Source: Candidatus Thorarchaeota archaeon (lineage in GTDB: Archaea; Asgardarchaeota; Thorarchaeia; Thorarchaeales; Thorarchaeaceae). Taken from it: a stretch of DNA of 37,689 bases. The first letter of the stretch is position 1; every line of letters starts with the position of its first letter. This document shows, piece after piece, positions 3,209-36,719 of this stretch. Location of the stretch: NCBI GenBank assembly GCA_016840855.1, contig JAEORO010000214.1, positions 1 through 37,689 on the forward strand. Direction: 5' to 3'. Under the pieces are notes generated by a model. It had not been told where the DNA came from. It made no database searches and was given only the letters and a program-made list of their open reading frames with translations. The translations under genes were made by a program, and so were the position numbers.

Positions 3209-4381
3209 TTGGCTTTCGATGATAACTCTAGTAGTATTATAACATATCCAACGTTTGCTGAATTAAATGACATTCTTTTACTCCACTTTGAAATCGTAAC
3301 AAGTGTCCTTGAGTTCGGCATGCCAACGTTTATTGTTCGTTGGCCTGCTGGTGTCGTTGAAACCAATGAAAAGCAAGATCAGGTCTTCAAAGAGCTAACC
3401 AATTTGACAAAGCCTCTCAAAGTCTGGCCGCTTGTAAGATGGAAGGACAAACAAGAAGGTGAGTACTTCATTAGGTTTGTTCCAATTCAAAAACCAGGTC
3501 CAAGCAACAAGAGGATTAACTATGCCCTATTTATTGCCACTCTAGCAACTATAGCAATTGGAGGCCTTCTTCAAGCCACAAGTCAGGTATTCTTAACTCT
3601 TTTCTACCCTGGTGGCTGGACATATCTCGATATTGCATATGTTACGATTACGTTCATGTTAGCACTCATGGGGATAATCTTCACTCATGAGATGGGGCAC
3701 TATCTCATGTGCAAACGAAAAGGGATTGAGGCATCTCTTCCATATTTCATTCCTGGTCTTCCCCAGATCGGAGGCACCTTTGGAGCATTCATTTCGCAAA
3801 AGAGTCCACCAAACAATAGAGAAGATCTTATCGACATGGGTTTGGCAGGTCCTCTAGCTGGCTTTGCAGTCACTCTGGTTGTACTGTTCGTTGGATACCT
3901 GATGTCTGTGCCGGTTACTGCGCAGGAGCTAATCGCTATTGATGAAACTTTTCCAGGCATGTCTGGGGAACTTGCCACACCTCTTCTTTTCACACTGATT
4001 GGTTATATCTTTACAGACTTCGTCCCTACGGGTGGAACATTGTATATGCATCCCATTGCTTTTGCGGCTTGGGTGGGTATGCTGGTGACAGCCTTGAATC
4101 TGTTTCCAATTGCACAGTTAGACGGTGGCCATGCATTGCGAGCTATAGTTGGTCCCAGATGGCACAAACAGATTGGTTGGGTTGCGCTATTGATAATGTT
4201 GCTCACAGGGTACTATTTGATGGCAATCTTAATACTTGCACTATCATCTGGCGGGGATCATCCTGGTCCGTTGAATGACACAGTAAAGATATCAAATGGT
4301 AGAATTATTGCGTTCATAGCTGCAATGATAATCCTCGTCTTGTGTATTCCACCTCTATGGCAAATGATGGGTCTTTTTTAG
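3209..4381 (+). CDS. Site-2 protease family (M50) intramembrane zinc metalloprotease
   Basis: HEMGH and NLFPIAQLDGG motifs, several TM helices, soluble N-terminal region. Confidence 0.92.
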   Translation: MAFDDNSSSIITYPTFAELNDILLLHFEIVTSVLEFGMPTFIVRWPAGVVETNEKQDQVFKELTNLTKPLKVWPLVRWKDKQEGEYFIRFVPIQKPGPSNKRINYALFIATLATIAIGGLLQATSQVFLTLFYPGGWTYLDIAYVTITFMLALMGIIFTHEMGHYLMCKRKGIEASLPYFIPGLPQIGGTFGAFISQKSPPNNREDLIDMGLAGPLAGFAVTLVVLFVGYLMSVPVTAQELIAIDETFPGMSGELATPLLFTLIGYIFTDFVPTGGTLYMHPIAFAAWVGMLVTALNLFPIAQLDGGHALRAIVGPRWHKQIGWVALLIMLLTGYYLMAILILALSSGGDHPGPLNDTVKISNGRIIAFIAAMIILVLCIPPLWQMMGLF

Positions 4382-8692: not shown

Positions 8693-9519
8693 CGAAAATG
8701 AAGAAAGTAAGTGAAATGAAACCTGATGAGATTAAAGATGCAGTTAGAGATGCCTACTCTCGTGTAGCGAAGGAAACCTGGACTCCGGATGAACAAACAC
8801 CAAATTGTAGTGATGCAAGTTGTGGTCCTGCACCAAGTCAAACATCCTCAAGTTGTTGTGGTCCTCAGCAAGAAGTCAAAGTCACAAGAGTAAATCTTGC
8901 AGAAGCTCTTGGATATGATACTGAAGGTATGCCAACAGGTGCTACTGAATCCTTCGCTGGGTGTGGAAATCCTGTTGCACTTGCTAGTCTCAAAGAAGGC
9001 GAGGTTGTCCTTGATCTTGGTAGTGGTGCTGGCTTGGATATGTTTGTTGCAAGTAAGAAGGTCGGCGAAACTGGAAAGGTAATTGGTGTAGATATGACTC
9101 CCGCAATGATTGAGAAAGCAAAGCAAAATGCTGAAGAATTAGGAATCACGAATGTTGAATTTCGCTTTGGTGATATTGAGGATATGCCAGTTGAGGATAA
9201 TTCTGTTGACGTTGTAATTAGTAATTGTGTCATTAACTTGGCTCCTGATAAAGGCAAGGTGTTTCGTGAAGCTTATCGTGTTTTGAAACCTGGCGGTCGT
9301 GTGATGGTGTCTGATATAGTCCTCTCTAAACCATTGCCACAAGAAATTCGAGATGAAGTTGTGACGTACACTGGCTGCATTGGAGGTGCAATTCTTGATG
9401 AAGAGTATCTTCAACACATGCGTGATTCAGGATTTCATGATGTCCGGATCACTAGCAAGGCTGGACAGAGTCTCTACGGTGCATATAGTGCATACATTGC
9501 TGGATCAAAGCCTGAGTGA
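8689..9519 (+). CDS. arsM: Arsenite S-adenosylmethionine methyltransferase
   Basis: GCGNP, VLDLGSGAGLD, SNCVINL, GCIGGA and N-terminal SCCG motifs. Confidence 0.92.
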   Translation: MTKMKKVSEMKPDEIKDAVRDAYSRVAKETWTPDEQTPNCSDASCGPAPSQTSSSCCGPQQEVKVTRVNLAEALGYDTEGMPTGATESFAGCGNPVALASLKEGEVVLDLGSGAGLDMFVASKKVGETGKVIGVDMTPAMIEKAKQNAEELGITNVEFRFGDIEDMPVEDNSVDVVISNCVINLAPDKGKVFREAYRVLKPGGRVMVSDIVLSKPLPQEIRDEVVTYTGCIGGAILDEEYLQHMRDSGFHDVRITSKAGQSLYGAYSAYIAGSKPE

Positions 9520-10346
9520 AGGAGAGTTATTTTTTGGATTTTGAGGTTAGTATGGAAACCAGCGGAAATCTTGTCAAAGTGCCTGTCGGTGTCAATGGTC
9601 AAGGTCCTTTCATCTTTGACCTAGACACTGGCGCATCAGCGACAACCCTTTCCAAAAAACTCGCTGAAAAGCTTGGAATCGAAATTCGTAAAAGCAATCG
9701 TTCTGATGCACGTGGTATTGGAGGAGGAGTCCCTACTGAATTCGCAGACGCAACCATCAATCTTGGCGCTCTTGAATTTGAAGTGGATGAGGTCTATGTC
9801 CTAGATCTTGACTCAATGTTACGTTGCGCTGGTGAGCACGGTGGAGTGTTAGGATATACAACTCTGAAGCATTGTACGATGTCACTCAGTTATTCTAAGA
9901 AACGCTTCAAATTGAGCAAAGGTAGTTCCTCATTAAACCTTGAATGGGGAAAGTTCCATTACATCCAAGACACGCACCTTATTGGAATTCCGGTTCATAT
10001 AAACGGAAGCGGCCCCTATGAATTCGTTCTCGATACTGGGGCTGGTAACAGTGTAGTTACGCCAGAACTAGCTAAGAAGCTGGGTCTTGAAGCCAAAGAA
10101 TTCCCTGGTATCGCCCGTGGAATTGGTGGGGATGTTCAACTAAAACTTGCTCCGGTAGAAACATTATCAGTTGGATCAGCACAAATTGAGAATACCCAAT
10201 TAGTCGTTGTAGATCTCTCGCTTGTGTCACCCAAGGGAAAACTGATTGATAATGGTATCATCGGATATGACTTTCTCAGGAATTTTGAAACTATCATCGA
10301 TTATCCCGAACAGCAGTTTTCGTTTATTGACGAGCGCGATTCGTAG
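9516..10346 (+). CDS. Aspartyl protease with two tandem retropepsin-like domains
   Basis: FDLDTGAS...GVLG and FVLDTGAG...GIIGYDFL. GTG start overlaps the arsM stop; alternative ATG at 9552. Confidence 0.88.
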   Translation: MKESYFLDFEVSMETSGNLVKVPVGVNGQGPFIFDLDTGASATTLSKKLAEKLGIEIRKSNRSDARGIGGGVPTEFADATINLGALEFEVDEVYVLDLDSMLRCAGEHGGVLGYTTLKHCTMSLSYSKKRFKLSKGSSSLNLEWGKFHYIQDTHLIGIPVHINGSGPYEFVLDTGAGNSVVTPELAKKLGLEAKEFPGIARGIGGDVQLKLAPVETLSVGSAQIENTQLVVVDLSLVSPKGKLIDNGIIGYDFLRNFETIIDYPEQQFSFIDERDS

Positions 10347-16062: not shown

Positions 16063-16959
16063 TCACTGGTTAGACTGGAAATTATTATTCTCTTCATCTC
16101 CAGTGCTCAACGGACTTACTAGTAGTCCTTCTGAAGTTGCTTTTAGAACAACTCGTTTCTTGATTCCTGCTAAGCGTCTGATCGTTTCTGGAATCACCAT
16201 TCGCCCCTTCGCATCAATTTCCGTGATGTCACCATAGAGCGTGTGTTTCTGTCCCTCAATGAGACCATCTCTAATTCTCAAGACCCTATCTGCATACTCT
16301 GCAACTCGTGGATTATGGGTGACATTGATGATGGTTGTTCCAAATTCTTCGTTAGTCTTCTTCAGGGCTTCCATGACCATCTCAGTTGTTTCACTATCCA
16401 GCTCTCCTGTAATTTCGTCTCCCAGTAGAAGTTCCGGTTTGTTTGCTAGAGCCACGCAAATTGCACATCTTTGGTTTTCTCCTCCAGACATTTGATTTGG
16501 CTTATGGTGTGCTCTTGGACCCAGTCCCATTGTATCAAGTAACATCTGAGCTCTTTCATTTGCGAGCTTTGTTGGTGCGCCCGCGAGTTTCATAGGTAGA
16601 GTGACATTCTTGAATGCTGTTAGACCAGGTACCAGATTACCAACTTGCCAGATGAAACCGACTTTCTGTCGTCGATAGAGCATGGACCTTCTGTCATCAA
16701 GGATAGAAACGCTGTGACCATCAAAGAGAATCATTCCTGCTGTGGGTTTATCTAGTGCTCCCAACATCTTAAGTAAGGTTGATTTTCCTGACCCACTAGG
16801 TCCAACAATTGATAGGAACTCACCCTCACGCACTTCGAAGTCAACTCCTCTTAAGGCAATGACCTCTTTCTGTCCCCGCCTGTAGACTTTCATTAGGTCT
16901 CTAACAACAACCTTGTATTGCTCCGCGATTTCATCAAGATTTTCTGTCATGATTTTCAC
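16063..16959 (-). CDS. LolD/MacB-type ABC ATPase with C-terminal AbrB/SpoVT-like domain
   Basis: GPSGSGKS, MSGGENQR, LLGDE and VTHN motifs; tail TEIDAKGRMVIPETIRRLAGIKKRVVLKATSEGLLVSP. Confidence 0.9.
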   Translation of the reverse strand: MKIMTENLDEIAEQYKVVVRDLMKVYRRGQKEVIALRGVDFEVREGEFLSIVGPSGSGKSTLLKMLGALDKPTAGMILFDGHSVSILDDRRSMLYRRQKVGFIWQVGNLVPGLTAFKNVTLPMKLAGAPTKLANERAQMLLDTMGLGPRAHHKPNQMSGGENQRCAICVALANKPELLLGDEITGELDSETTEMVMEALKKTNEEFGTTIINVTHNPRVAEYADRVLRIRDGLIEGQKHTLYGDITEIDAKGRMVIPETIRRLAGIKKRVVLKATSEGLLVSPLSTGDEENNNFQSNQ

Positions 16960-19826
16960 CCTGTATATTGAATTTCCTCTGCGATATTGAGCTTAAGTGC
17001 TCGAGACACAACAACATATGTTGCCAGGAGAGACACTATCACAGCAGTACCAATTATTCCTATTAGCAATGGCCAAGGTACTACGAGATTTACTGGAAGT
17101 CTTGTCCATAGCTGATTAGTTGATAGTCCCATGTATAATAGTGGTATGTCTTTTAGTAATAATGCAAGTACAGTTCCCAAAGCCCCACCTATTAATGCTG
17201 CCAGCAGTATTCCAATTGATGTATCAGCTAATGTCGCTACAATCATTGATTTAGTTTCAGCTCCTAATGCCCTTAGAACGGAAAACTGCTTTCTCAGATT
17301 TCTGATTCTGACAGCTGTAACAATAATCATCCCGAATGTGAGATAGATAATCGAGAATATGACATTAAGTGTATACGCTCCAAAGATTGACTGTGTGGCT
17401 CTAGAATCAAGAACTTCATCAATCGATTCTTGAGCCGCTTTTATATCATTGAAACTTGATGGTGCAATGTTGTAGATGTCAGTCATTACTTGAGTATAGT
17501 TAGCATCTGGTGTGAGATCGATATAGAATTTCGTCACACGTGTATTATTAATCCAATTATGTAGTAAACTGATATCCATGATTAGAAAATCAGAAATATC
17601 TGGTTCACCTGGGAAGTATGTATTCTGAATATAACCTCCGATACCATTTGTCATAAGATCAACAATTGTGCAGCTAGTTTCATTATACCATGTAGGACTA
17701 AAGACCTGCAAATCAAGCAATGGAGAGTATTGAGGTATAGGCATACGAGTGACTGGATCGATAGTATAATAGCTAACTGGCTTAAATGTGGTAATGATGT
17801 TGATGCCATCATCTGATGAATCGTTTAGCTTTGGTATGGATAATTGAGGTCGGTCATAATATGTGAAATAATCAAGCCAAAAGGCAGTTTCAATCCAAGA
17901 GTTCGGTTGAACTCCAAATACCGAAATTGAACGATTGACATTTTCCCCTCCGCCGTAGGCATATGCATTCCAATACTGAACATAACCCATGACCTGAAGT
18001 ACCGGACTCACTTGAGCAACGCCGCTAACTTCAGTTATATTTTGAATAAGGTTCATAGTGACATTAGTTAGAGTAGGATCAACTTCAACAGTGATATCAG
18101 CTCCAGTTTCAAACAGGAATACATGTTTCATATGCATATCTCCAGTTGTGGCTGAGAGTGAAGCAAAAAGACCTGCTGTGAAAACCATCGCGATAAACAT
18201 TGTTCCAATAGCTTCAGACTTCTTGAACATCCGAGTTGTCCTTGATATGAGACGAGCGCCAACAACTAATGAGGGTCGTTTAATCCTCGATAGCAACCTC
18301 GACTTAATAATTGCAGTTCCTCTTGACAGCAGCCTAGTAAAGGAGTAAAGAAAGATAGCCATCATAGGTATAATGGTCATTGCAAAGAATGTTGATGCCA
18401 TTGTCGATAAACCGCCAAATGCAAACATAAACATCAACATCAATAGGAGATATCCTGAAACTCCCATAACTAGCATATCGATGGCTGGACTCGCCATTTT
18501 TTCTGATTCAGTCAGAATTTCTCCTTCAAGAACATTATGTGCTTCTGTGGGAGTCATAAGGAGAGCTTTGACAGCAGATGGCATAGCCACGATTAAACCT
18601 ACTATGAATGAAAATGAGAAGACAATAATTATAGCTGTGGGCTCAAGTAACAGGGTGAATCCAGATAGTTGGTCAAAACTGAACACCAGAAGTTCTCTTA
18701 CAGAACCAGACAGAATAGCCGCTAAGAGTCCAGTAAAAACTGCACCTAAGCTCCCAATAATTCCAGTAGTGACTGCACTACTTAATACCCAGAGGAATGC
18801 CTGTATTCCTGACGAACCTCTAGTCTTGATAGTACCAACATCTCTACGTTGTTCATCAGTCAGAAGTTTTGAGTTGTATTGTATAAGCATGACTCCCATG
18901 ATTATCGATGGTATCGAGAACGCAATAGCAACTGCTCGCACACTCATGGACCAAATAGCAAATTCATAAACTGCGTTTTGAATTTTGTAAGAATCGTATC
19001 GAATTATACCAAATGGCAAGGTTTCCTGTTCAATCTGTTTCTTTATGTTCTGAAGGATTTCAATCATTGCTTCTGCATCATTTTGGATAATTCCCATTCT
19101 ATCAAACTTGACCCAGATTCTATCTTGAATACCGTAATAGTCATCATGTGGAAGAAACCCAAATGTTGAGTTCAGTGCTTCAGCAGTAGTAATAATTTGT
19201 AGATATGTGACTTCAGGTTGATTCCAGTACTGTTCCATCATGTAAATATTTGAAATGAATGTGCCAACAATTATGAATGACTTCTCTATTTGAATTTCAG
19301 ACCAATTTCCATCTGACCAATCCTCAACAGTTATGGATACTGTATAATTTCCACCTAATTCAAGGCCTTCTGAGAGAAATAGGCTATTCTCCACAAGACA
19401 TGAATCATTATCATAGGATAAAGTTCCGCTATTCAGATTGATTGCATCAGGAAATGTTTCAAATGCGGTACTATTTATTCCCAAGAATCCTCTTCTACTA
19501 TATCTATAATCTTCAGCATACCAGTCATACATGTTCACGAACGTTATAGGTTCTGTAGCAACTACATAATCCTGCGATTCAACTATCTCTCTAATTTCAT
19601 CAAAAGATGTCGAGCTGGGATTAGAGAAGTTTTGAATATAGAATTGATAACCTAATGAAACCTCCATATCAATTGGTACATCCGCAGTCATGTCGTTAAG
19701 GACAGTTGGGGCGGTGGAGTCCATGTAGAATAGAATTCCACCAAGAACTCCACTTGATAATGAAAAAATCAAGAGTGTTGTCAGAACTTCAGGGGCTCGC
19801 GCAGATAAACGTGCGAATAGAAACAA
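16956..19826 (-). CDS. FtsX/MacB-like ABC permease (duplicated architecture)
   Basis: QRRDVGTIKTRG and LRKQFSVLRALGA coupling motifs; two large extracytoplasmic domains. Confidence 0.88.
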   Translation of the reverse strand: MFLFARLSARAPEVLTTLLIFSLSSGVLGGILFYMDSTAPTVLNDMTADVPIDMEVSLGYQFYIQNFSNPSSTSFDEIREIVESQDYVVATEPITFVNMYDWYAEDYRYSRRGFLGINSTAFETFPDAINLNSGTLSYDNDSCLVENSLFLSEGLELGGNYTVSITVEDWSDGNWSEIQIEKSFIIVGTFISNIYMMEQYWNQPEVTYLQIITTAEALNSTFGFLPHDDYYGIQDRIWVKFDRMGIIQNDAEAMIEILQNIKKQIEQETLPFGIIRYDSYKIQNAVYEFAIWSMSVRAVAIAFSIPSIIMGVMLIQYNSKLLTDEQRRDVGTIKTRGSSGIQAFLWVLSSAVTTGIIGSLGAVFTGLLAAILSGSVRELLVFSFDQLSGFTLLLEPTAIIIVFSFSFIVGLIVAMPSAVKALLMTPTEAHNVLEGEILTESEKMASPAIDMLVMGVSGYLLLMLMFMFAFGGLSTMASTFFAMTIIPMMAIFLYSFTRLLSRGTAIIKSRLLSRIKRPSLVVGARLISRTTRMFKKSEAIGTMFIAMVFTAGLFASLSATTGDMHMKHVFLFETGADITVEVDPTLTNVTMNLIQNITEVSGVAQVSPVLQVMGYVQYWNAYAYGGGENVNRSISVFGVQPNSWIETAFWLDYFTYYDRPQLSIPKLNDSSDDGINIITTFKPVSYYTIDPVTRMPIPQYSPLLDLQVFSPTWYNETSCTIVDLMTNGIGGYIQNTYFPGEPDISDFLIMDISLLHNWINNTRVTKFYIDLTPDANYTQVMTDIYNIAPSSFNDIKAAQESIDEVLDSRATQSIFGAYTLNVIFSIIYLTFGMIIVTAVRIRNLRKQFSVLRALGAETKSMIVATLADTSIGILLAALIGGALGTVLALLLKDIPLLYMGLSTNQLWTRLPVNLVVPWPLLIGIIGTAVIVSLLATYVVVSRALKLNIAEEIQYTG

Positions 19827-22631
19827 CTACACGTCACCTCCATATGGAGCTGCTTCAGCCCATGTTGCATTCAATGTTGATGCAAGATTAATTCGTGACC
19901 CAAGCACAGCTACAATTCCGATGAAAATCACCACTGATACAATGAAAAACGCAAGAACCGATAGAATAGTGCTCCAAGGAATCACTGCAAAAATAGGGAC
20001 AGGGTATATAGTGTACCAAGAAGCCATTCCAGTTGAAGATGAAGCAATGGATGTTGTCAAATACATCGGAGCATAAACCAGTAGGACAATAATGCTGAAC
20101 AACATTAAGACAAGCATCTCTGCTCCTTGAGCTCTTACAATGACTCCAACATCAGCTCCGTTAGATCGCAGGAGTGCAATCTCTCTTCTCCTCTCACGTA
20201 CTCCTTCCAATGCATAAACAGCAAAGGCACCCATAATTGTGCCAACTGTAAGAACTGTCAACATTGTATCAACCGCTCTATCCATATGGTATGATACTTG
20301 GCTTAGATATTCGCCAGTCCTTGTAGTTACCGAATCCCAGGTCCCTTCCCAGAGTACTTGCATTCCTCCATGATTAAGTACATCACGCACAATTTGAGTT
20401 CCATTTGCTCCTTTAACAGTTGAAACACATAGAAATGAATCAGTTTCATTAACAATGTTGATGTGTGTGCTGAGGAAGTCACGATTTACCAATACCCTCT
20501 GCTGACCCACAATCTGATAGTAACTTGGATAAAATGGCGTTGGACCTATTGGTATTGCATCATAGTATATCCAATCATCTCTTGCTGGCATCTCAGGGAT
20601 AGATGTAACAATTCCAAGGATTCTGAAAGAGATCGGTATTGTATCCCCGGAGAGTTGAGTTGCACGCATGATGTCTCCGACCTCAAGATTGAAGTCGTTC
20701 GCAATGTCTGAAGATATTATTGCGCCATCTGGAATTGACGAAAGAGATTCTAACATTCCTCCCATTTCGGATTCATTCAATCTATTACCCAAATAGTGAT
20801 ACCCAATTTTTGAGTACTCAGTAGGATTGACTGCTAGAAACGTATTTCGTCCCTCATATCCGCTAGTCAGATACAAATCAATCTCTGACACTACCGTACT
20901 AGAAGCAACTTGTCCATGATCTGTGACATTTGATATGAAATCGTTCCAGAGATCATATTGCGAACTATCAAGTGCAAATGAAATGTCCGCACCAACACTC
21001 AATCTTGATTGGTATTCAACAGTCACTGGTAACGACGCATCGATGAGAGCACTGTTCCATGAAAGGCATATTGCCAGAACCAGAACCATTGCAGCAGCCC
21101 CGCCAGATGATGCGCCTTTACCAATTCTACGAATGCCTATGGAAGCTGATATTGGCCCAACTATTTTTGTCATATATTTTGATATGATGGTTGAGCCTCT
21201 CCTAAGTAACTTTATTGATAGACTTGCAACTCCAAGAAAGAGTGGGAGTGGAATAATTGGAAGGATCAATCCCAATATTGGATCACTAACGACCGTAGTT
21301 CCTCCAGTAGCTAGAGCGAGTAGAAGCAAACCAGATATCAACACAACTAGTAAATCCCATCTGATGAAGTTGAAACCTTTTACAAGCTTGGCAATTTTTC
21401 CTGTGTTTTCATCAACTGATTTCTTGGTCGAGTAGATCACTCGATACCCACCTAATGTCATCACTGGCAAGATAATCCCAACAAGGACTGAGATTATCAA
21501 TGATTCAATAGAAATCAGAAATGGCTCAGTAATCATCAAATTAAAATTAAAAGTGAAGTATCCGCTGGATGATATTGCTACCCTACTAATTCCTATTCCG
21601 GCGAATATCCCTATGATACAAGAGAGAATAGACAGGATGAATATTTCTCTATTTATAATCTTGTCAAGATCCCCAGTTGCCGCACCTCTTGAGTATAACA
21701 CACTTGACTCGTATCTTCTCTCGTTTACATTATGCCGAATTGCGAGAAATGTGACAAACACAATTAAAACTATAATTCCAGAAGACCTGAAAAGTTGAGC
21801 CATCCTGGCTACCTGAATCCAATACATGTATTGATTAATCGCATCTGCAATATGATTTGACACCCAGTATCTAGACGACCATGGATATTGTGGGTCATAG
21901 TAAGGGTCAAGCTCCCTTATCGCTTGCCCAATCCCGGAAACATATGCTAATGAACCGCCTGCGTTGAAAGGAGTAACTCTAGATCTATCAATATCAATGA
22001 AGACTCTGTGGTTTATTTCTGACATGAGATCTGGATTTACGATTGCGATACTATCATATGACCAATAGTATTGATTGGAAATCTCTGAGTCACCTTGTTT
22101 GTAAACTCCTATGATTTCAACCTCTTGTAAATCATAACCCCAATATGGAGTGAAATTCACAACATCTCCGATATTGAACCCATAATATTTGACGATGCCA
22201 TCTATTACAGCAATTTGCGAGCTATTTGCTCCGGGGAATGCTCCGTCAACGAGTGTGATATAGCCTGGGAATGTATCCATGAACTCTTGAGAAGGTGCTA
22301 TGATGTCCCCAAAAATTAAGTCCTGCCAAGATCCCCACTCGTCAGTATACCAATACTCGATACCTCCCATACTAGTTTGAATTGCCGCAGCCTTTGTGAC
22401 TCCATCGATGTTTTGGATACTGCTGACGTAATTCTGTATGGTTTCTCCTTCTGCAAACATTGCTATTGGTCCAACATCTGCCATATTATTATCCCACTCA
22501 TGGACTGAGTAAGAATCAACATACACTGTGATGCCCATAGCCATTGCAGACGCGAGCAGAAAACAGAGAAGTGTAACACCTTTGCGTCTTACACTATGAA
22601 ATGCCTCATAGCCTGCTGGTACTGCGGCCAT
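19827..22631 (-). CDS. FtsX/MacB-like ABC permease (duplicated architecture)
   Basis: ERRYESSVLYSRGA and ERRREIALLRSNGA motifs; two large extracytoplasmic domains. Confidence 0.88.
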   Translation of the reverse strand: MAAVPAGYEAFHSVRRKGVTLLCFLLASAMAMGITVYVDSYSVHEWDNNMADVGPIAMFAEGETIQNYVSSIQNIDGVTKAAAIQTSMGGIEYWYTDEWGSWQDLIFGDIIAPSQEFMDTFPGYITLVDGAFPGANSSQIAVIDGIVKYYGFNIGDVVNFTPYWGYDLQEVEIIGVYKQGDSEISNQYYWSYDSIAIVNPDLMSEINHRVFIDIDRSRVTPFNAGGSLAYVSGIGQAIRELDPYYDPQYPWSSRYWVSNHIADAINQYMYWIQVARMAQLFRSSGIIVLIVFVTFLAIRHNVNERRYESSVLYSRGAATGDLDKIINREIFILSILSCIIGIFAGIGISRVAISSSGYFTFNFNLMITEPFLISIESLIISVLVGIILPVMTLGGYRVIYSTKKSVDENTGKIAKLVKGFNFIRWDLLVVLISGLLLLALATGGTTVVSDPILGLILPIIPLPLFLGVASLSIKLLRRGSTIISKYMTKIVGPISASIGIRRIGKGASSGGAAAMVLVLAICLSWNSALIDASLPVTVEYQSRLSVGADISFALDSSQYDLWNDFISNVTDHGQVASSTVVSEIDLYLTSGYEGRNTFLAVNPTEYSKIGYHYLGNRLNESEMGGMLESLSSIPDGAIISSDIANDFNLEVGDIMRATQLSGDTIPISFRILGIVTSIPEMPARDDWIYYDAIPIGPTPFYPSYYQIVGQQRVLVNRDFLSTHINIVNETDSFLCVSTVKGANGTQIVRDVLNHGGMQVLWEGTWDSVTTRTGEYLSQVSYHMDRAVDTMLTVLTVGTIMGAFAVYALEGVRERRREIALLRSNGADVGVIVRAQGAEMLVLMLFSIIVLLVYAPMYLTTSIASSSTGMASWYTIYPVPIFAVIPWSTILSVLAFFIVSVVIFIGIVAVLGSRINLASTLNATWAEAAPYGGDV

Positions 22632-22646
22632 TTTCCTTTTCCTCCC

Positions 22647-23333
22647 TCATGGATTCTCTATCATGCCATCTCTCATTCTGTATACATGATCCATTTTTTC
22701 GCCTACTTCTGGGTCGTGAGTCACCGTGATTAGAGTGCCTCCTTCACCTTTTGTCAGTGAAACTAAAATATCCAGAATCTCTTTTCCAGTGTTATAGTCG
22801 AGGTCTCCTGTAGGTTCATCTGCAAGAACAATGACAGAACTTGTTGTACCAGGCGGTTTAGCCAGAGCTCTCGCAATCGCGACTCGTTGCTGTTCTCCTC
22901 CCGACAGTTCATCCGGACGATGCTCAGCTCTCTCCGTTAAACCAACAAGAGATAGCAAGTGATCAACACGGTCTTTTCTCTCATCTTCTGCAACGCCGCC
23001 GATGAGTAACGGGAGTTCTACATTCTCATATGCAGAAAGAACAGGTAAGAGGTTAAAGAATTGAAACACGTAGCTAATCTTATTCCGTCGGACTCTGGTC
23101 AGCTCCCCCTCATCCATGTTCGTGATATCAACTCCATCTAGGACGACTCTACCGTGCGTTGGTCTGTCGAGTGCGCCTATTAGGTTCAGTAATGTAGTCT
23201 TTCCTGAGCCGCTCGGTCCCATAATACCAATGGCGCTTCCTCTTTTGATTTCGAGTGAAACACCTCTCAAGGCGTGAACTTCAATCTCACCCATGGAATA
23301 TACTCTTGATACTTCATCGAGGTCAACAATCAC
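22647..23333 (-). CDS. LolD/MacB-type ABC ATPase
   Basis: [30 protein letters not shown]. Confidence 0.93.
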
Positions 23334-24641: not shown

Positions 24642-25964
24642 TTAAGTAAAACCATGTCCTATTGTATTTTCAAACAGATGAGCAGCTGTAGAAAAGACTT
24701 CTTCAACACCTTCACCAGTGGTACAAGACGTTTCAAGAAATGCGACTGGATGAAGGGCTGCATCATCTCCATAACGTTGAGCTAGCTCTTCTGCAAATCT
24801 GAATCCTTCATCATACCCAACTGGTTCATCTCCCGAGTCCTCACCAGCTTCAGTCCTAAGATCGATTTTGTTTGCCACAATTACGAGTGGTGGCATATCC
24901 TCTGTTGATAGTGTGGCTTCTCTCAGCCAAAAATCAATGCTCTCAAAACTCCATCGATCAGATGCGGAATAAACTATAATCAAAACTTGAGCGTCCCTAT
25001 AGAACTCCTTTCTCTGCACTTTTGCTTTAACAGCAAGATCGAATGACCATACTCTCATTTCAACACGATGACTCTTGCAATCGAAAATACGACCAAAAAT
25101 ATGGTCTGACACAGAACCATCTTCCAGTTTTATTGGAACGATTTCTGCTTTTGCCTTCAGAGTTTCTTTTCCAACACCATCTTCTCCCAACAACAATGTC
25201 TTACATTCAACAATGGGTTTAATCTGATGGGCTGGGACCTCTTGAGTTTCTATTTCTTCGTCCAGTTGCTCTTCTTCTTCGATAGTTTCTGCGATAAGCT
25301 CAATCTCTTCATGTTCAACCTCAATTTCAGCTTCTGGGACTTCTTCTTCAGGTTCTATTATTTCACCAATCCTTGCAAATGATTTTTCGGACGCAACGAT
25401 TTCCTCATTTCCAGCTAGGTTGATACTGATTTCAGCTTTCTTCTCTACAGGTTTCTCCTTTGGTGCGCTTGTCATGAAAGTGTCGCTCAAAGATTCTACT
25501 GCTTGAAGTGCATCAGCTATATCATCAAAGTCTTCAACACTAATCTCGCCTTTCTTGTCAGCACTAACTCCTTGACTCTCAACAAATGTTGCTGCTTGAT
25601 CAGGAGCCTTTCTAAGGAAGCTTCTCTTTTTCTTCTCAGGTTTTTCAGGTTCAACTATTGATTCTGGTTCTTTCATGACTGGTTCTTCAGGAATCACTAC
25701 AGGTTCTGGTGCTTCTTTTTCTTCCAAAACTTCCTCTCTAATGACTCTTCTCGCTTTTGGAAGACCAATACGGTCCAGTACATCTTCAAGCACTCCAGGA
25801 GCCAATCTCTTGCCAAGGTATCGTATATATTTCTGCAGCTCTAGAGCGACATCGTCAAATGATCTCCCTTTCAAAGGAATCTTCTTTTTGACAACCCCCT
25901 TATCACGCACCTCAACATAGGTTGGAGTGAGCGTGAGTGAGATGGTTGTTCCCGGAATTATCAT
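24642..25964 (-). CDS. Rab/Ras-like small GTPase domain (degenerate) with long acidic N-terminal extension
   Basis: KTLLLGEDGVGKET, VWSFD, FYRDAQVLIIVY...SFESIDFW, VANKIDL, ETSC. Confidence 0.88.
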   Translation of the reverse strand: MIIPGTTISLTLTPTYVEVRDKGVVKKKIPLKGRSFDDVALELQKYIRYLGKRLAPGVLEDVLDRIGLPKARRVIREEVLEEKEAPEPVVIPEEPVMKEPESIVEPEKPEKKKRSFLRKAPDQAATFVESQGVSADKKGEISVEDFDDIADALQAVESLSDTFMTSAPKEKPVEKKAEISINLAGNEEIVASEKSFARIGEIIEPEEEVPEAEIEVEHEEIELIAETIEEEEQLDEEIETQEVPAHQIKPIVECKTLLLGEDGVGKETLKAKAEIVPIKLEDGSVSDHIFGRIFDCKSHRVEMRVWSFDLAVKAKVQRKEFYRDAQVLIIVYSASDRWSFESIDFWLREATLSTEDMPPLVIVANKIDLRTEAGEDSGDEPVGYDEGFRFAEELAQRYGDDAALHPVAFLETSCTTGEGVEEVFSTAAHLFENTIGHGFT

Positions 25965-29700: not shown

Positions 29701-29800
29701 ACTTCATACCCACTCGCATGTTTCAGTCTAAATCATACAATCTTAAAAGTTGACCACATCAACCTTATTTACACTTAAAGTTGAAACAAGAGAGAGTATC

Positions 29801-31387
29801 ATGAGTCAGCTTCTTGAAGCACGCAGAAGTCTTCGACGGCGCGTAAACCTAATACCAAAATATGATGTTTTTGTCCATCGTTTCATAACAGCTATATTGA
29901 TTGTAGATATGATACTGATACTCTATGCTATGATCTCAGTTACACTTGGTATGACTCTAGGTGGAGTTGGATTTATTGACTCATTGCCACTTGCCCTGTA
30001 TATTCTACCACTATTTGTATTTCTCCCAATTATGATTCGATCTTATCATCGAGACCGACTTGCCATATGGAATTTCATATTTCTAGTAATATGCACAGTG
30101 TTCTTTGGTATGCTCTCTGTTCTTGTACGAGGTTTCATCCTTTGCTTGGTACTTAATGTTGCCGCGTTATTTCTTGTATTCATTATGGGACGGTTTCGAC
30201 CGAGAGGAACACTTAGAGATGTAGGGAAGAAAGGTGTTGTTTTTCTTATTCTCGCAAACTTATTGGGGCTCGCATTTCCAATTACAACTGTTTTAATGGG
30301 TCAATATCCAATAGCCACAGTAACAGTAGATGCAGTATCTGAAATCCGGTTCAGTGTTCCCTTGGCTGATTTTGACTTTCCATATCAGAATCTTACTCCT
30401 ACACCGCAGTTGCTTTCTGCTATCCAAGTGAATAATTTCTTGGTTGATCTACACATACTTGAAAATGAAGACTCATCTTGGTCAAGACTAAGAACTTGGT
30501 TGGTTGCATTTAATGATACTGAAATATCATATTCAATTACCTTGACTGCAAATCGGGGTATGTTAGCAGGAAATAATCCACACTCATTAGCAACAACTGA
30601 GTTATTAGAAAATGTCTTTGAAAGCCATGGAAATGCTTTGTCACAGCTACTGGACAGCGAGTTGGCAGAAATTACCAATAGACCTGAATTTCTTCTATTT
30701 GATATGACCCTGTCAAGACAAGAATGGCAAGCACTAATGATGCGAACAAGAAACTTAGACCTCATTGGATTTGGAGATTTGATGCGAACATCAATCTATT
30801 CGATCGATAAAACTCGTATCGAGAATGCATCATCGACATTATATGGTGCTGCTATCGCATCGGGTATTTCTTCAGGTTTACTCATTGAAACCTTTGTACT
30901 GGATGACCTTATTGATGGTGACTCATTAACAATGAGTCTCTGTGGAGTTACATCTTCTTCAATTCAAAACTGGGACAGAATATCAGTGTTGTGCAGTCGT
31001 TCACGATTTTCCTTTGAAATGAATGGTGATGTTGGAGAGTATTTGGTGCATTCATATTCGCGTTCAATCAGCAGACTGGAAAACACTTGGAGTATTAGAA
31101 TTGGAGAAACAGGCAACTCTACTGATGTGGTAGGTAGGATTGATAATGTATACGAAGATTTAGGCATATTGGTAAATGATATTGCGCTCGCATCTGGAAA
31201 TGGTGTAGCTCAAATCACTCTAAACTCACTTCCTTCATTCCTAACTGCATTTGGGAATGATTCGCTTTCAACCCTTCGAACATCCATCAATACAGCTCAA
31301 CAAGCAATTGCCACCTATACCTTTAGGATCTATGCATTCCGCGCTGTCTTTATTGCCATTGATTCATTTGATTATATCATGCTTTAG
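29801..31387 (+). CDS. Hypothetical protein: about 5 N-terminal TM helices plus large soluble domain
   Basis: Long ORF with hydrophobic N-terminal third; ATG at 29801 preferred. Confidence 0.75.
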   Translation: MSQLLEARRSLRRRVNLIPKYDVFVHRFITAILIVDMILILYAMISVTLGMTLGGVGFIDSLPLALYILPLFVFLPIMIRSYHRDRLAIWNFIFLVICTVFFGMLSVLVRGFILCLVLNVAALFLVFIMGRFRPRGTLRDVGKKGVVFLILANLLGLAFPITTVLMGQYPIATVTVDAVSEIRFSVPLADFDFPYQNLTPTPQLLSAIQVNNFLVDLHILENEDSSWSRLRTWLVAFNDTEISYSITLTANRGMLAGNNPHSLATTELLENVFESHGNALSQLLDSELAEITNRPEFLLFDMTLSRQEWQALMMRTRNLDLIGFGDLMRTSIYSIDKTRIENASSTLYGAAIASGISSGLLIETFVLDDLIDGDSLTMSLCGVTSSSIQNWDRISVLCSRSRFSFEMNGDVGEYLVHSYSRSISRLENTWSIRIGETGNSTDVVGRIDNVYEDLGILVNDIALASGNGVAQITLNSLPSFLTAFGNDSLSTLRTSINTAQQAIATYTFRIYAFRAVFIAIDSFDYIML

Positions 31388-32294
31388 GTGGCATGACATA
31401 GACCTCAAAGACTCCAGTCCAGATTTCGCTACTAGACTCAGCTTTTATGAGTAAATCTCCTCCGAAATTTACTCCTACTGGACTGGACTTGCCTTTCTTC
31501 CAGACATCTGAGAAAATCAAAGAGTGCAATTTATTTTGAAAATCCTCAGTGACCCTCTGAATCATACCATCGATATATGCCTCATCAATTCCCTGTGGAG
31601 AGAGATCTGCTGTTGTCCTAAACAGTCGCTCCTCACTAATGGCACCTTCAGTCTTATCAAATCTATAGCCAATTCCTCCTACTAGATAGAACTGACCTTG
31701 TGGAACTCGAGGTTCATCTCCGACGACTATCATTGAACCATCTGCTAGAAGGATATAAGTTGGTGCTGCAACATTAAATGGAATCGAGGCTGCTTCAACA
31801 GATACTTCATCCAGTTTCAGCTCTTTTGTCAAATACTCGTGCAAAGTCCTTACTCTACTATCAAATTGAAATGGGGCAATCTCACCAAGATGCAAGATGT
31901 TGCGTGCTTTCCTCAAAATGACATCCAATATGTGTTGAGCACTTTTTAAGAACTCAATACGTTCCTCCTTTTTCAGAAGGATATCACCAGCTGATATTAC
32001 TACTCTTAGAAAATCAACCGTCTTGAATTTGGAAATAATTGTACGACTCAGATAGGTCGATTCCTCTGTTTCTAGAAAACCTTCTTGGGATGCTACCTCG
32101 GATGGAATTGGTTCACCTAAATGGACTTGTACAACTCTGTTGCCTCTCTTAGATTTGAAAAAGATACCAACATCATAAGATTTCCGAGGAATATCTATTA
32201 ATTGCCGTACAAATGTTCCATCTGGAACAATCTCTTTTGCTTGTGCTTTTGCATAAATTTGTGTATATTTTGCAAAGAGATCCGTTCTTGACAT
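31377..32294 (-). CDS. Hypothetical soluble protein
   Basis: 305-aa ORF with GGGAG RBS; no motif recognised. Confidence 0.75.
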   Translation of the reverse strand: MSRTDLFAKYTQIYAKAQAKEIVPDGTFVRQLIDIPRKSYDVGIFFKSKRGNRVVQVHLGEPIPSEVASQEGFLETEESTYLSRTIISKFKTVDFLRVVISAGDILLKKEERIEFLKSAQHILDVILRKARNILHLGEIAPFQFDSRVRTLHEYLTKELKLDEVSVEAASIPFNVAAPTYILLADGSMIVVGDEPRVPQGQFYLVGGIGYRFDKTEGAISEERLFRTTADLSPQGIDEAYIDGMIQRVTEDFQNKLHSLIFSDVWKKGKSSPVGVNFGGDLLIKAESSSEIWTGVFEVYVMPPKA

Positions 32295-32370
32295 TTTCTT
32301 ATCTCCCGTAGTAACTTACTATTTCCAATGATGGCTATTATCATTTCGGGTGATTTACTTCGAGAATTAT

Positions 32371-32496
32371 TTATGCTCCATGACAGTTCGTACAAAGCTG
32401 TAATGGAAGTTCACCGCTTATGACGTAATGAATCGCTAGAAATGCAATGAACCCAATAATGATTACTAATAATATTATCTTGATGAATTTGTTCAT
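32371..32496 (-). CDS. 41-aa single-TM micro-protein ending in CxxCH; not in ORF track
   Basis: Hand translation MNKFIKIILLVIIIGFIAFLAIHYVISGELPLQLCTNCHGA*. Confidence 0.65.
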   Translation of the reverse strand: MNKFIKIILLVIIIGFIAFLAIHYVISGELPLQLCTNCHGA

Positions 32497-32618
32497 TTGT
32501 TATAGATATCGTCACTCTCCTATCTATTTTGCTGCGGACAATGAACAAGAATATGAGCGACAAATTATAAAGCAGGCAAGTAAACAAATCGGCTCGTGCT
32601 CTAGGAAAGGTATTCAAC

Positions 32619-32918
32619 ATGTACAGAAAAAAGATTGGTGTTTTACTTGTTATTTTAGGACTTGTGCTTTTCATAGTTTCTCTATTTTACATCCTTCCTA
32701 TACCTGATTTGTACATCTTTTCCTTATTCATGATGTTCATTGGAGTTGTTCTAATAGGCATCGGAGCCGCATTTGCTAGACGTGCTGACAGGTCTCTTGA
32801 TATTCCAAAAGATAATTGCTACTACTGTCAAGGTACCGGCAAGATCAAAAATGGAGATGAATATGAAACATGCCCTCGTTGCGGTGGAACTGGTCTAGCT
32901 CGAGCCGATGACACATGA
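32619..32918 (+). CDS. 2-TM protein with DnaJ-type zinc finger (two CxxCxGxG), no J domain
   Basis: CYYCQGTG...CPRCGGTG after two TM helices. Confidence 0.85.
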   Translation: MYRKKIGVLLVILGLVLFIVSLFYILPIPDLYIFSLFMMFIGVVLIGIGAAFARRADRSLDIPKDNCYYCQGTGKIKNGDEYETCPRCGGTGLARADDT

Positions 32919-34434: not shown

Positions 34435-36372
34435 CTAGATTGACCTCTTAAATTTGAAGCCTTCTCGCAACATTCCTAATCGAATTCCTGCAAGTAGCCA
34501 GCCAATAATTGATAGAATCTCACTACTCACAACAAATGTCACCATGATCGATACCATTAATGCAATCTGCTGAGGTGTGGGAACACCCGCGAATACTATC
34601 ACAACCATAATTACAACTATTGCAGCGACAACAAGGCTTGCCATTGTTGCTATCTTGATTAGTGTGCCTTCAAAGAAATTCCCTTTATCCACTAAATCAT
34701 TTGAAAGATTTAGATTCAATGACATAACTAATACAATGCTAATCGAATAGAGCGCTAGAAGTAAAGCAGCCCCAGTATTAGCTTCGTGAGCTGCACTCAG
34801 GTTGCCTGCAATTGCTGGAATCATGAATGAAAATAGAACACTTGCACCTACTAGCACCCCACCTGTCGAATAGCCTCGACCATAAGAATAGCCAGCAAGT
34901 GACACATTTCTCAAGAGTAGTACCAGCAATGGTAGAGCAATGATAGCAGGTCCTTGCACAGCAGCTGGAATTAGTGGTATCAATGTGATGTTAAACCATC
35001 GATTTGTGGGCCAAAGCGCAAGTGGTCCACTTCCAAAACCACCCAACAAAAATGCAATGATGGCAAATGATGATGCCAGACTAACAACAACTGTTAGAGC
35101 TGCCTGTGAGAAGCCTGTAAGTCCTCTAATCAAAGTTTCAGCGATTAAGAAACATTGAGTGATAATTACTAATATCCATGGGATCAGCACAAGAGGTAGC
35201 AAGACATAGGGGTGGACCATTATGAACACTGCAAGAACTACCATTGGAATCCCTGTAACTATGTCTGTTTTTGCAGTGTACGCAGCTCCCATGAGAAAGA
35301 TTATCCCTGCTGGAGCTGTCACTAGGAAAAAGCCCCATGCACTCACTCCCGCAAAGCGAGCACCAGCCTGACCTGCGGAAACAATTCCAATTAAAGCTAG
35401 AAACAGCATGAACCATTTGATTCCACCTTTGATAATGTCCTCACCAATCGCAGCTGCCTTTAGCTCTCGCGCACCTAGTCGTGGTGCAAGCATTATCCAG
35501 TATAACATCATACTAACTAATCCAAACACAAGAGCTGGATTTGTTTGATATCTAACATTGGTAGCCAGGGTGCTCCAGGGAACCCATACCTCATATCCTC
35601 CTTCGGATGCAATTGGTCCCATGAGTACAGCAGATATGCCTAAGATGAATGTTAAAACTCCTGTAATTGCAAACGCAAATTTTGCTTTCTCAGTACTTCT
35701 TGCATATTCACGAATGGTATCAAATGGTCCCCACCAGAAGAGAAACGCAAACAATTGGCCAAGTAGAAGACTTCCGTATGCTACATAAATGAGAAGAGGG
35801 GATATTGCCTGGCCTACAGCAAGTATCGGAATGAATAATGCGTTAAATGTTCCTGCAAGGATACCAATCCAAGACTTGCTTGAATCAGTATAGACCACTG
35901 CTATTAGTTGCCAAGCAATCACAAAGAAACTTCCCATGAAATAAATTGATGTTAGAAATCCAGGAATGAGTGAGTCACCTATCACAGCGAGGAACTGAGT
36001 TGGGAAGGAATAAGCAAGTACTGCAGCAAGGAGAAATCCTACCCATATGACGTTCACATAACCAGATCCTAGAAAGCTTCCAAGATTTCGAGAACCGAGC
36101 GCTTGTAAAAATAGACAGACCGCCATTAATATCATAAATGCTGTAACATAGATGAAATATTGCGAATCTCCTTCAATCGTCCATACAAATGGTGAAAGTG
36201 TTTGAACTTGCCAATTTAGAGAGGAGATAGGAATCAAGCTTTTCCCGATGAGAAGACCAAATGCCGCAGCAATGATGCCAAATACACTACCAATACTAGC
36301 AAGCTTGCCAATCCTCTCACCTGATCGAAGCGTACTACTCGTTTCCTGTATTGTTGAGCTAATCTCGGCCAT
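34435..36372 (-). CDS. Large hypothetical polytopic membrane protein (roughly 17-19 TM)
   Basis: Almost entirely hydrophobic ORF; ATG at 36372 follows a GAGGA RBS (track start is 36387). Confidence 0.78.
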   Translation of the reverse strand: MAEISSTIQETSSTLRSGERIGKLASIGSVFGIIAAAFGLLIGKSLIPISSLNWQVQTLSPFVWTIEGDSQYFIYVTAFMILMAVCLFLQALGSRNLGSFLGSGYVNVIWVGFLLAAVLAYSFPTQFLAVIGDSLIPGFLTSIYFMGSFFVIAWQLIAVVYTDSSKSWIGILAGTFNALFIPILAVGQAISPLLIYVAYGSLLLGQLFAFLFWWGPFDTIREYARSTEKAKFAFAITGVLTFILGISAVLMGPIASEGGYEVWVPWSTLATNVRYQTNPALVFGLVSMMLYWIMLAPRLGARELKAAAIGEDIIKGGIKWFMLFLALIGIVSAGQAGARFAGVSAWGFFLVTAPAGIIFLMGAAYTAKTDIVTGIPMVVLAVFIMVHPYVLLPLVLIPWILVIITQCFLIAETLIRGLTGFSQAALTVVVSLASSFAIIAFLLGGFGSGPLALWPTNRWFNITLIPLIPAAVQGPAIIALPLLVLLLRNVSLAGYSYGRGYSTGGVLVGASVLFSFMIPAIAGNLSAAHEANTGAALLLALYSISIVLVMSLNLNLSNDLVDKGNFFEGTLIKIATMASLVVAAIVVIMVVIVFAGVPTPQQIALMVSIMVTFVVSSEILSIIGWLLAGIRLGMLREGFKFKRSI

Positions 36373-36719
36373 AACTGAATTCCTCACTTGGTGACGGTCA
36401 CCATCAGTCGCGTGATACGAAGATGAGGGGTATAAATGCCTACCGATTGACGAAAGACCATCATTTGACTCGCTTGCTCTAAACTAAATACGCTATGATA
36501 GATTAACATAGGGCTCAGTCTCATGTTACATAGTATCTTTTGTTTTTGATCGATCAGAGAGAAGAACAGGACTTTATGCTTACTCCATGGTTATTATCAA
36601 ATCTGTTGTGCAACAATCCATTTTGTTTTATTGCCAAAATAACTCTAGATTTGACAGCGCTTCTCTGTAAGACTTAATACCTGCATAATTAGGCAGTATA
36701 CTATAGGTGGTGAATACTT

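Follow-up and report, generated by a model that had tools for sequence, protein, structure and literature searches.

The stretch of Thorarchaeota DNA analysed here (37,689 nt, in the following referred to as the window) contains a short gene that, judged from its conservation among related genomes, encodes a genuine Thorarchaeota-specific, single-pass membrane micro-protein. The protein and its full-length homologues, which are 38–45 aa long, represent a new micro-protein family, for which an outward-facing His/Cys-x-x-Cys-His site is predicted. Among the possible cofactors of this site, a non-heme metal or a dithiol was ranked first, and a covalently bound c-type heme was ranked second.

Layout and coding status of the micro-ORF

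The micro-ORF is located on the minus strand at positions 32371..32496 (41 codons followed by TAA; the coding part is 32374–32496), with the ATG at 32496–32494 and the TAA at 32373–32371. A preliminary description of this DNA had proposed a 41-aa ORF, and the translation is identical to the residues quoted there; the strand, which was missing from that description, is minus. The ORF fills 126 nt of the 324-nt gap between two divergent genes, and its absence from the ORF track is probably the result of a length cut-off only. The encoded protein begins with a basic flank (MNKFIK, 32479..32496, minus strand), predicted to be cytoplasmic on the basis of its charge and the positive-inside rule, and continues with about 20 hydrophobic residues that include His23 (codon at 32428..32430, minus strand, close to the outer end of the helix). 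After a short linker, it ends with the motif Cys35-Thr-Asn-Cys38-His39 (32380..32394, minus strand), which is followed by only two residues, Gly and Ala, ahead of the stop codon.

The length of the ORF is uninformative, because a complete ATG ORF of at least 41 aa was present in 4,557 of 20,000 mononucleotide shuffles of the 324-nt gap (23%). The micro-ORF is taken as a protein-coding gene because of its conservation, that is, the pN/pS ratio, the divergence at the three codon positions, and the presence of homologues. For eight syntenic copies (28 pairs; the window, L001, L003, L004, L005, L007, L012, and L018), pN/pS was 0.26 in the frame of the micro-ORF (pS 0.667, pN 0.173), compared to 0.65 and 2.67 when the alternative frames were read; this pool takes in two stop-bearing and two motif-altered copies, and it excludes L002 as well as the decayed copies, which were not alignable in frame. 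The mean pairwise differences among the same eight copies were 0.294, 0.092, and 0.463 at codon positions 1, 2, and 3, respectively. Divergence is highest at the third position, followed by the first and the second, which is the pattern expected of a coding sequence. No Rfam match was found for the region at E ≤ 1, and its RNA fold was not more stable than the folds of shuffled sequences (z-score −0.19; 84 of 200 shuffles folded as well), so that a structured RNA at this position was rejected. By these comparative measures, the micro-ORF is a protein-coding gene, or was one until recently.

AlphaFold2, run with an alignment of 19 sequences, predicted one helix comprising residues 3–27 (block pLDDT values of 94, 97, and 91), followed by a tail of low confidence, in which the pLDDT drops from 68 to 51 and only one turn (residues 35–37) is seen. 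This helix, together with the unbroken hydrophobicity of residues 7–27 (32416..32478, minus strand), delimits the transmembrane segment. The earlier claim of a single-pass membrane micro-protein is thus borne out by the conserved reading frame, the hydrophobic stretch, and the predicted helix. In 12 of the 13 members scored, the N-terminal flank has a net charge of +2 or +3 and the C-terminal flank has a net charge of −1 or 0, whereas one member, P0007, lacks such a bias. These charges favour an N-in/C-out orientation and support, as a prediction, the positive-inside topology with an external CxxCH that had been suggested before. In the structural model, His23 is located four residues ahead of the helix end and beside an aromatic residue, which would place it at the outer membrane interface.

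On the downstream side, the neighbouring gene (31377..32294, minus strand) encodes a 305-aa protein that occurs throughout the Thorarchaeota (31 loci) and to which no function could be assigned; these loci also assign the window to the Thorarchaeota. It has no match in Pfam, the PDB, or the Atlas, and its AlphaFold2 model has a pLDDT of 42. The divergent neighbour (32619..32918, plus strand), with orthologues in 28 loci, encodes a protein of 99 aa that combines two TM helices with a pair of CxxCxGxG knuckles, and for which sub-threshold Pfam matches to Anti-TRAP and DnaJ_CXXCXGXG were obtained. Other genes nearby encode a Ras-family GTPase, a geranylgeranyl reductase, an aldehyde:ferredoxin oxidoreductase, and TBP.

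Promoter-like elements were found on both sides of the micro-ORF. An A/T-rich box, AAAATAGATA (32521..32530, minus strand), is located 25–34 nt upstream of the micro-ORF ATG, and a box similar to ACAAAT(A/T)AGG is present in the aligned copies 21–24 nt ahead of the ATG. This spacing exceeds that of a ribosome-binding site but would suit an archaeal TATA box, so that AAAATAGATA might be the TATA box of a transcript with no leader or a very short one. A further conserved element, AAATCACCCGAAATGATAATAG (32335..32356, minus strand), lies between the stop codon of the micro-ORF and the 305-aa gene. In 28 of 29 sequences, a box resembling GATAATAG was found 45–53 nt upstream of the ATG of the 305-aa gene, irrespective of whether the micro-ORF is present or absent, and AAATCACCCGAAATGATAATAG is probably the promoter of the 305-aa gene itself. 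The linkage between the two genes is weak, because the 305-aa gene has its own upstream box also in the absence of the micro-ORF. The possibility of deducing a function of the micro-protein from this downstream gene was rejected in view of the lack of family matches, the unusable AlphaFold2 model, and the weak linkage. On the other side, a conserved TATA-like box of the TTTATAA type, GCGACAAATTATAAAGCAG on the plus strand (32557..32575), lies about 50 nt ahead of the 99-aa gene, which it presumably faces; it was matched by a regular expression in 26 of 29 cases. The distance from this box to the ATG of the 305-aa gene is 79–111 nt in genomes without the micro-ORF and 261–285 nt in genomes with the ORF or a full-length remnant thereof. 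Therefore, the micro-ORF occupies an additional stretch of DNA, about 190 nt in length, that separates two putative promoters. A T-run is absent after its stop codon, and thus transcription might continue into the 305-aa gene.

Conservation of the family and decay at the locus

Database searches yielded only short relatives of the micro-protein. Two relatives of 41–42 aa were retrieved by a word-indexed search of 5.8 billion proteins, five proteins of 29–45 aa were found at E ≤ 1e-3 by a HMMER profile search of 1.84 billion cluster representatives of any length, and 14 proteins of 38–45 aa were matched by the family profile in a larger protein set. Altogether, there are 15 database relatives (P0002–P0016) of 29–45 aa, and the sole taxonomic label among them is "Candidatus Thorarchaeota archaeon", attached to P0008. 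One relative is the 29-aa shortened product of an L007-type copy, and another one is identical to the L004 copy, with Gly instead of Cys38. In the other 13 proteins, the CxxCH is located 0–2 residues from the C-terminus. The anticipated invariance of the CxxCH was thus found in 13 of the 14 full-length homologues, but Cys38 or His39 is missing from three copies that are otherwise intact. The all-length HMMER search revealed no relative of more than 45 aa, and a length-restricted search, which is weak evidence, matched none of 80–2000 aa; fused or longer forms of the family, absent from both searches, were therefore rejected.

The conservation of individual residues was analysed in an alignment of 19 intact ORFs, three motif-mutated copies among them. 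His23, Pro31, Leu32, and Cys35 are invariant in all 19 ORFs, 18 of them retain His39 and 17 retain Cys38, and Phe19, Gly28, Leu34, and His39 are each kept in at least 90%. Pro31-Leu32 (32401..32406, minus strand) are part of the linker G-x-L-P-L-x-L. In contrast to these positions, the xx pair within the CxxCH is free (TN, AN, SN, YN, TQ, SD, or TE), and Gly40 is absent from eight of the 19 ORFs. Four distant full-length homologues, which share 39–50% identity with the window protein and were selected without reference to the motif, all have His23 and all end with a CxxCH (CYNCHTW, CTQCH, CSDCH, and CTECH). Five homologues (P0005, P0007, P0008, P0011, and P0016) stop directly after the His. 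The family signature can be written as a TM helix followed by H-x7-P-L-x-x-C-x-x-C-H at the C-terminus, and the window copy keeps every invariant residue. A C-terminal prenylation box was considered and rejected, because the positions of the Cys residues relative to the C-terminus vary.

His23 and the CxxCH, to which the preliminary description had drawn attention, turned out to be the conserved core of a family that is absent from the libraries, and the view that no family of this form had been described holds for these libraries as well. In Pfam, no family matched the micro-protein at E ≤ 0.01, and only sub-threshold matches were obtained at E ≤ 10. NCBIfam yielded nothing beyond TM-like noise, no metal-binding family in Pfam or NCBIfam matched, and the PDB sequences gave one chance match, to a TetR regulator (E 0.94).

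The state of the gene at the syntenic locus was classified for 28 genomes, that is, the window and 27 further loci. Four loci were outside the classification, L011 with only 95 nt of upstream sequence and L029–L031 with an anchor gene lacking its 5′ end, and tblastn found no match to the micro-protein in them. The ORF and the CxxCH are both intact in four of the 28 genomes (the window, L003 (AB_25), L005 (SMTZ1-45), and L018). Three genomes have an intact ORF with the loss of one motif residue (TGT>GGT in L004, TGT>TCT in L002, and CAT>CCT in L012), and two genomes have a single in-frame stop (TAC>TAG at codon 24 in L001 and GAA>TAA in L007). A recognisable wreck is present in five genomes (L006, L008, L009, L010, and L013), and nothing recognisable was found in the other 14 (L014–L017 and L019–L028). 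Two of the objections foreseen in the preliminary description thus apply in part: the motif is not invariant, and at this locus 24 of the 28 genomes either lack the ORF or have it in a broken or motif-mutated form, although it is conserved across the family. Even L001, the closest relative of the window with a 305-aa neighbour that is 94% identical, carries a stop at codon 24.

In a tree of the 305-aa neighbour, all copies and wrecks of the micro-ORF fall within one clade of 17 rows (support 96/97), and the intact copies are scattered among the broken ones. This scatter implies that the gene is older than the clade and has undergone several losses. In the more distant loci, no distant homologues were found at the corresponding position, and homologues of the family occur at places other than the window locus. 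In L018, a TGA replaces Gly40. Selenocysteine incorporation or another recoding of the in-frame stops (TAG in L001, TAA in L007, and TGA in L018) was rejected, because five homologues also end after the His. On this comparison of genomes, the micro-protein gene is dispensable.

Candidate functions of the Cys/His site

We tentatively favour, at somewhat less than even odds, the explanation that the outward His/Cys-x-x-Cys-His tetrad of a real micro-protein holds a non-heme metal or acts as a dithiol served by CcdA. According to this model, the two or three N-terminal Lys/Arg residues would stay in the cytoplasm, residues 7–27 would cross the membrane, and the last 14 residues would be outside. 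Selection has kept the four putative ligands, His23, Cys35, Cys38, and His39, which are spaced by the fixed G-x-L-P-L-x-L linker. The tail might fold back to the end of the helix, so that the four residues would bind a single cofactor at the surface of the membrane. Such a site would bind a metal ion in the Cys2His2 manner or, alternatively, act as a redox-active dithiol that is kept reduced through CcdA, and the peptide may be a small accessory or sensor subunit of a putative partner.

The non-heme site was ranked first because heme-handling synthases are reportedly absent from the lineage, whereas CcdA, an exporter of reducing power, is reportedly present. The only Thor proteome analysed in the accessible part of PMC7997004 is that of AB_25, which is identical to locus L003 and has an intact copy of the micro-ORF. 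In that part of its table, 9.B.14.1.2 and 9.B.14.1.3 (TC 9.B.14, the CcmC/CcmF/CcsA family) appear in the Heimdall and Loki columns only, and a match to the CcdA-type 5.A.1.2.10 is present in Thor. The Zn/redox CxxC peptide, which had been mentioned earlier as a fallback, is at least as likely as a heme protein.

Several observations argue against a non-heme site. The invariant His after the CxxC, the free xx pair, and the location on the outward side are the classic signature of covalent heme binding, unlike zinc knuckles. AlphaFold2 shows no folded knuckle (pLDDT of the tail 51–68), and no metal-binding family matches. The coordination of one tetrahedral ion by both of the adjacent residues Cys38 and His39 would be unusual, and extracytoplasmic Cys/His metal sites are uncommon. 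Furthermore, the missing maturation machinery was deduced from one incomplete MAG in one paper, and that MAG is not the genome of the window.

The second reading, which we regard as unlikely, is a minimal membrane-anchored c-type cytochrome, with a heme thioether-linked to Cys35 and Cys38 on the outer face, His39 as the proximal ligand, and His23 of the same chain or of a second copy as the distal ligand. It is in line with the retention of the CxxCH in nearly all full-length homologues (13 of 14), including all four distant ones, with a variable xx pair, with the presence of a second invariant His (His23) 11 residues upstream of Cys35, and with the predicted outward orientation of the C-terminus. 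In addition, the sole family resemblance of the micro-protein is to the TM-plus-first-heme part of NapC/NirT (PF03264). This profile matched four of ten members at E ≤ 10 (best E 0.028), and residues 5–39 of P0001 were aligned to profile positions 9–43 with 12.9 bits, compared to a gathering cut-off of 24.1 bits. In an ESM Atlas feature search, PF03264 was annotated on 28 of 30 matches, all in small clusters (top score 0.91), with the recognition value (2239) and the number of shared features (164) both under the guide values of the tool. Both resemblances are thus sub-threshold and may merely restate the combination of a TM helix and a CxxCH.

Proteins of the NapC/NirT/NrfH/CymA type are quinol dehydrogenases of about 170–200 aa with four or five hemes. 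In their first 40 residues, they share with the micro-protein a short basic N-terminus, one TM helix, and a first CxxCH about 10–15 residues past the membrane, on the side that is predicted to be the outer one for the micro-protein. The order at the N-terminus of PF03264, with the first heme motif after a TM anchor, is thus also found in the micro-protein. However, the micro-protein has one CxxCH, ends 0–2 residues later, and has no longer relative among those found. With a score below the cut-off and a single motif, it is, as judged from its sequence, not a member of the NapC/NirT family.

Two other known systems provide points of comparison for heme binding. The exposed 10–14 residues around the CxxCH match the size of microperoxidases and engineered CXXCH peptides; Braun and Thony-Meyer reportedly worked on artificial microperoxidases in 2004. 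Unlike the micro-protein, which is encoded by a natural gene, these peptides are proteolytic or engineered and are not membrane-anchored, and attachment of a heme to the micro-protein would require a synthase, which was not found in Thorarchaeota. Cytochrome b559 consists of PsbE and PsbF, very small single-helix proteins that each have one His near the membrane surface and that hold a heme common to the two chains. By analogy, His23 could belong to a heme shared within an oligomer. However, PsbE and PsbF are subunits of photosystem II with a non-covalent heme and no CxxCH, and neither of the respective Pfam families matched the micro-protein at E ≤ 10. In vitro, bacterial CcsBA attaches heme to CXXCH peptides of 9 to 20 residues, according to the accessible part of PMC8112865.

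Other observations speak against a heme. Three intact copies lack Cys38 or His39, and a tail of 14 residues would leave a heme with hardly any shielding. AB_25, which has an intact copy, is reported without a CcmC/CcmF/CcsA homologue in the accessible part of the inventory. In the accessible parts of the literature on sediments that contain Thorarchaeota, these organisms are cast as anaerobic fermenters or acetogens, cytochromes are unmentioned, and no attribution of cytochrome, heme, or multiheme proteins to Thor was found. A literature search for NrfH in Thorarchaeota had no match, and the matches listed for CXXCH in Asgard archaea contained no such peptide in their titles. According to the accessible part of a 2024 preprint, heme biosynthesis and complexes III/IV mark the Heimdallarchaeia rather than other Asgard archaea. 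Genes for ccm, ccs, or heme synthesis were not detected in Pfam scans of the 34 ORFs of the window, as had been stated before for cytochrome c maturation. The probability of a heme was lowered because the inventory of AB_25, one incomplete MAG, and the silence of the literature both point against the presence of synthases. The heme attachment proposed in the preliminary description is therefore not supported, as far as the accessible part of the AB_25 inventory goes. The bolder idea that the protein is the smallest natural c-type cytochrome, a 38–45 aa anchor with one bis-His heme on about 17 external residues, is one that we consider quite unlikely.

The third reading does not concern the cofactor but the present state of the gene, which may have had an ancestral function and may now be drifting, with no role in the window genome although it has not yet decayed. 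The distribution described above fits such a fading gene: only four of 28 genomes keep both the ORF and the motif, the other 24 show the graded series of a lost residue (3), a stop (2), a wreck (5), or nothing (14), the closest relative L001 is interrupted at codon 24, and intact copies are scattered among broken ones. However, the window copy keeps all invariant residues, the pooled pN/pS is 0.26 despite the inclusion of stop-bearing and motif-altered copies, and distant homologues with 39–50% identity keep the motif, so that we consider this reading improbable.

Even less probable is a cleaved signal peptide. Cleavage by signal peptidase after Ser-Gly(-Gly) would release a secreted peptide of 10–14 residues, (E/Q)LPLQLCxNCH(GA), which might be a signal, a metallophore, or a heme peptide. 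The sequence would allow such a reading, with a KK n-region, a hydrophobic core, and S-G or S-G-G ahead of a conserved Glu/Gln-Leu-Pro-Leu tail. However, the hydrophobic run of about 20 residues is anchor-like, and the C-terminal half, with the invariant His23, is more conserved than is usual for signal peptides.

We also attach little probability, slightly below that of the signal peptide, to the notion that the micro-ORF is either a relic of the 5′ end of a NapC/NirT/NrfH multiheme quinol dehydrogenase gene or a partial inverted copy of the 99-aa zinc-finger gene, and does not represent a separate family. The former would be compatible with the weak leads to PF03264 in Pfam and the Atlas. 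The latter would agree with tblastn matches at some loci of 29–31% identity to TM2 plus the first CxxCxG of the neighbour (E 0.006–0.2, in a tiny database), and the micro-protein resembles the DnaJ-type knuckle of the neighbour in having Cys-x-x-Cys-x-Gly after a TM helix and a short linker (elPLQLCtNchg aligned by hhalign with d.p.ddCYYC.G of the neighbour family). However, neither the all-length HMMER search nor the search for longer proteins yielded a homologue of more than 45 aa, and the stop codon is located 0–2 residues past the His in every full-length member. With regard to the neighbour, hhalign gave a probability of 13.8% over 12 columns, and the inverted DNA repeats between the two genes are only chance matches of 13–15 nt; a partial duplication of the 99-aa gene was rejected on these grounds. 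The micro-protein has one half-knuckle versus two pairs in the neighbour, the predicted side of the membrane is opposite, and PF00684, the DnaJ-type CxxCxGxG zinc finger, did not match it at E ≤ 10. Given the hhalign result and the single CxxC, the micro-protein is, by its sequence features, not a DnaJ-type knuckle.

An ORF that arose by chance within a conserved non-coding element, for instance a promoter or a leader RNA, which the frequency of equally long ORFs in gap shuffles (23%) and the two flanking promoter-like boxes would permit, is the least probable reading of all and close to negligible, given the frame-specific, coding-type divergence, the homologues away from the locus, the lack of an Rfam match, and the fold z-score of −0.19. 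The remaining probability is assigned to something else beyond these six readings.

Implications for the biology of Thorarchaeota

The annotation of archaeal genomes routinely misses small proteins, and this micro-gene, too, escaped the ORF track, although it represents a family whose signature, an invariant His and a C-terminal CxxCH, is unusually clean. Its hosts are Asgard archaea, relatives of the ancestor of eukaryotes, and very little is known about the cell surface and the redox biology of these archaea. The repeated losses at the locus represent a natural knock-out series that can be correlated with gene content.

If the micro-protein binds heme, cytochromes c could be smaller than hitherto assumed, and the view that Thorarchaeota are cytochrome-free would be contradicted. 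In that case, either a Ccm or Ccs system has been overlooked in Thorarchaeota or heme is attached by a novel route, and supposed fermenters from an Asgard lineage thought to lack cytochromes would have a redox-active cell surface. If, instead, the tetrad is a metal site or a dithiol, the micro-protein would offer a natural model, compact in size, for a mini-site tethered to the membrane, and it would be a possible client for the orphan CcdA of these genomes.

The downstream orphan and its upstream element

The 305-aa protein encoded immediately downstream of the micro-ORF on the same strand (positions 31377-32294, minus strand) is conserved in 31 Thorarchaeota loci, at identities of 61-94%. 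It has no match in Pfam, PDB or the Atlas, and AlphaFold2 supplied with 21 sequences yielded no usable fold (pLDDT 42). Judged from these searches, the 305-aa protein is an orphan found throughout the lineage. In the tree of this protein, three of the related loci, L025, L002 and L009, fall within Thorarchaeota clades; their records are labelled Hermodarchaeota (L025) and Promethearchaeota (L002 and L009), and L025 hardly differs from L023. The labels of other phyla may reflect mislabelled bins or differences in naming.

Comparison of the related loci L001-L028 also revealed a strongly conserved non-coding element located 45-53 nt before the start of that gene, which in the window has the form AAATCACCCGAAATGATAATAG (32335-32356, minus strand). 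A core resembling GATAATAG was found within it in 28 of the 29 sequences (the window and L001-L028), regardless of whether the micro-ORF is present. This element probably serves the 305-aa gene as its promoter or as an operator.

The end of the micro-ORF

In L018, the copy of the micro-ORF (3799-3924) has a TGA immediately after the codon for His39, where the others have GGA (Gly), and thus stops exactly at the CxxCH motif. The same ending is seen in five of the database homologues of the micro-protein (P0005, P0007, P0008, P0011, and P0016). The residues beyond the His are dispensable.

Membrane proteins and lipid-flavoured genes nearby

The divergent neighbour of the micro-ORF encodes a 99-aa protein (32619-32918, plus strand) with two TM helices and a tail carrying two CxxCxGxG knuckles, for which the Pfam matches, to Anti-TRAP and to the central domain of DnaJ, were sub-threshold. 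Orthologues are kept in 28 loci. The tail is predicted to be cytoplasmic. The protein looks like a mini zinc finger tethered to the membrane. Two large predicted multi-pass membrane proteins, of 650 aa (34435-36387, minus strand) and 545 aa (29750-31387, plus strand), neither assigned to a Pfam family, flank a lipid-flavoured set of genes, namely, a GDPD phosphodiesterase, an alpha/beta hydrolase, a geranylgeranyl reductase-like FAD enzyme, and an acyl-CoA synthetase.

Other genes of the window

The four-gene cluster at 16063-23333 (minus strand) encodes an ABC ATPase, a pair of FtsX-type permeases of very large size (956 aa and 934 aa), and another ABC ATPase. By Pfam, the cluster is a MacB-like exporter set and not a heme exporter of the CcmAB kind. 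A 276-aa protein (9516-10346, plus strand) contains two aspartyl protease domains of the retropepsin-like type, assigned to PF13650 and PF13975 over two stretches, and adjoins a class I methyltransferase. Finally, a 440-aa protein (24642-25964, minus strand) combines an N-terminal half of about 250 residues lacking an assigned domain with a C-terminal small GTPase domain of the Ras/Roc/Arf type (residues 253-429); such GTPases are a recognised Asgard trait.
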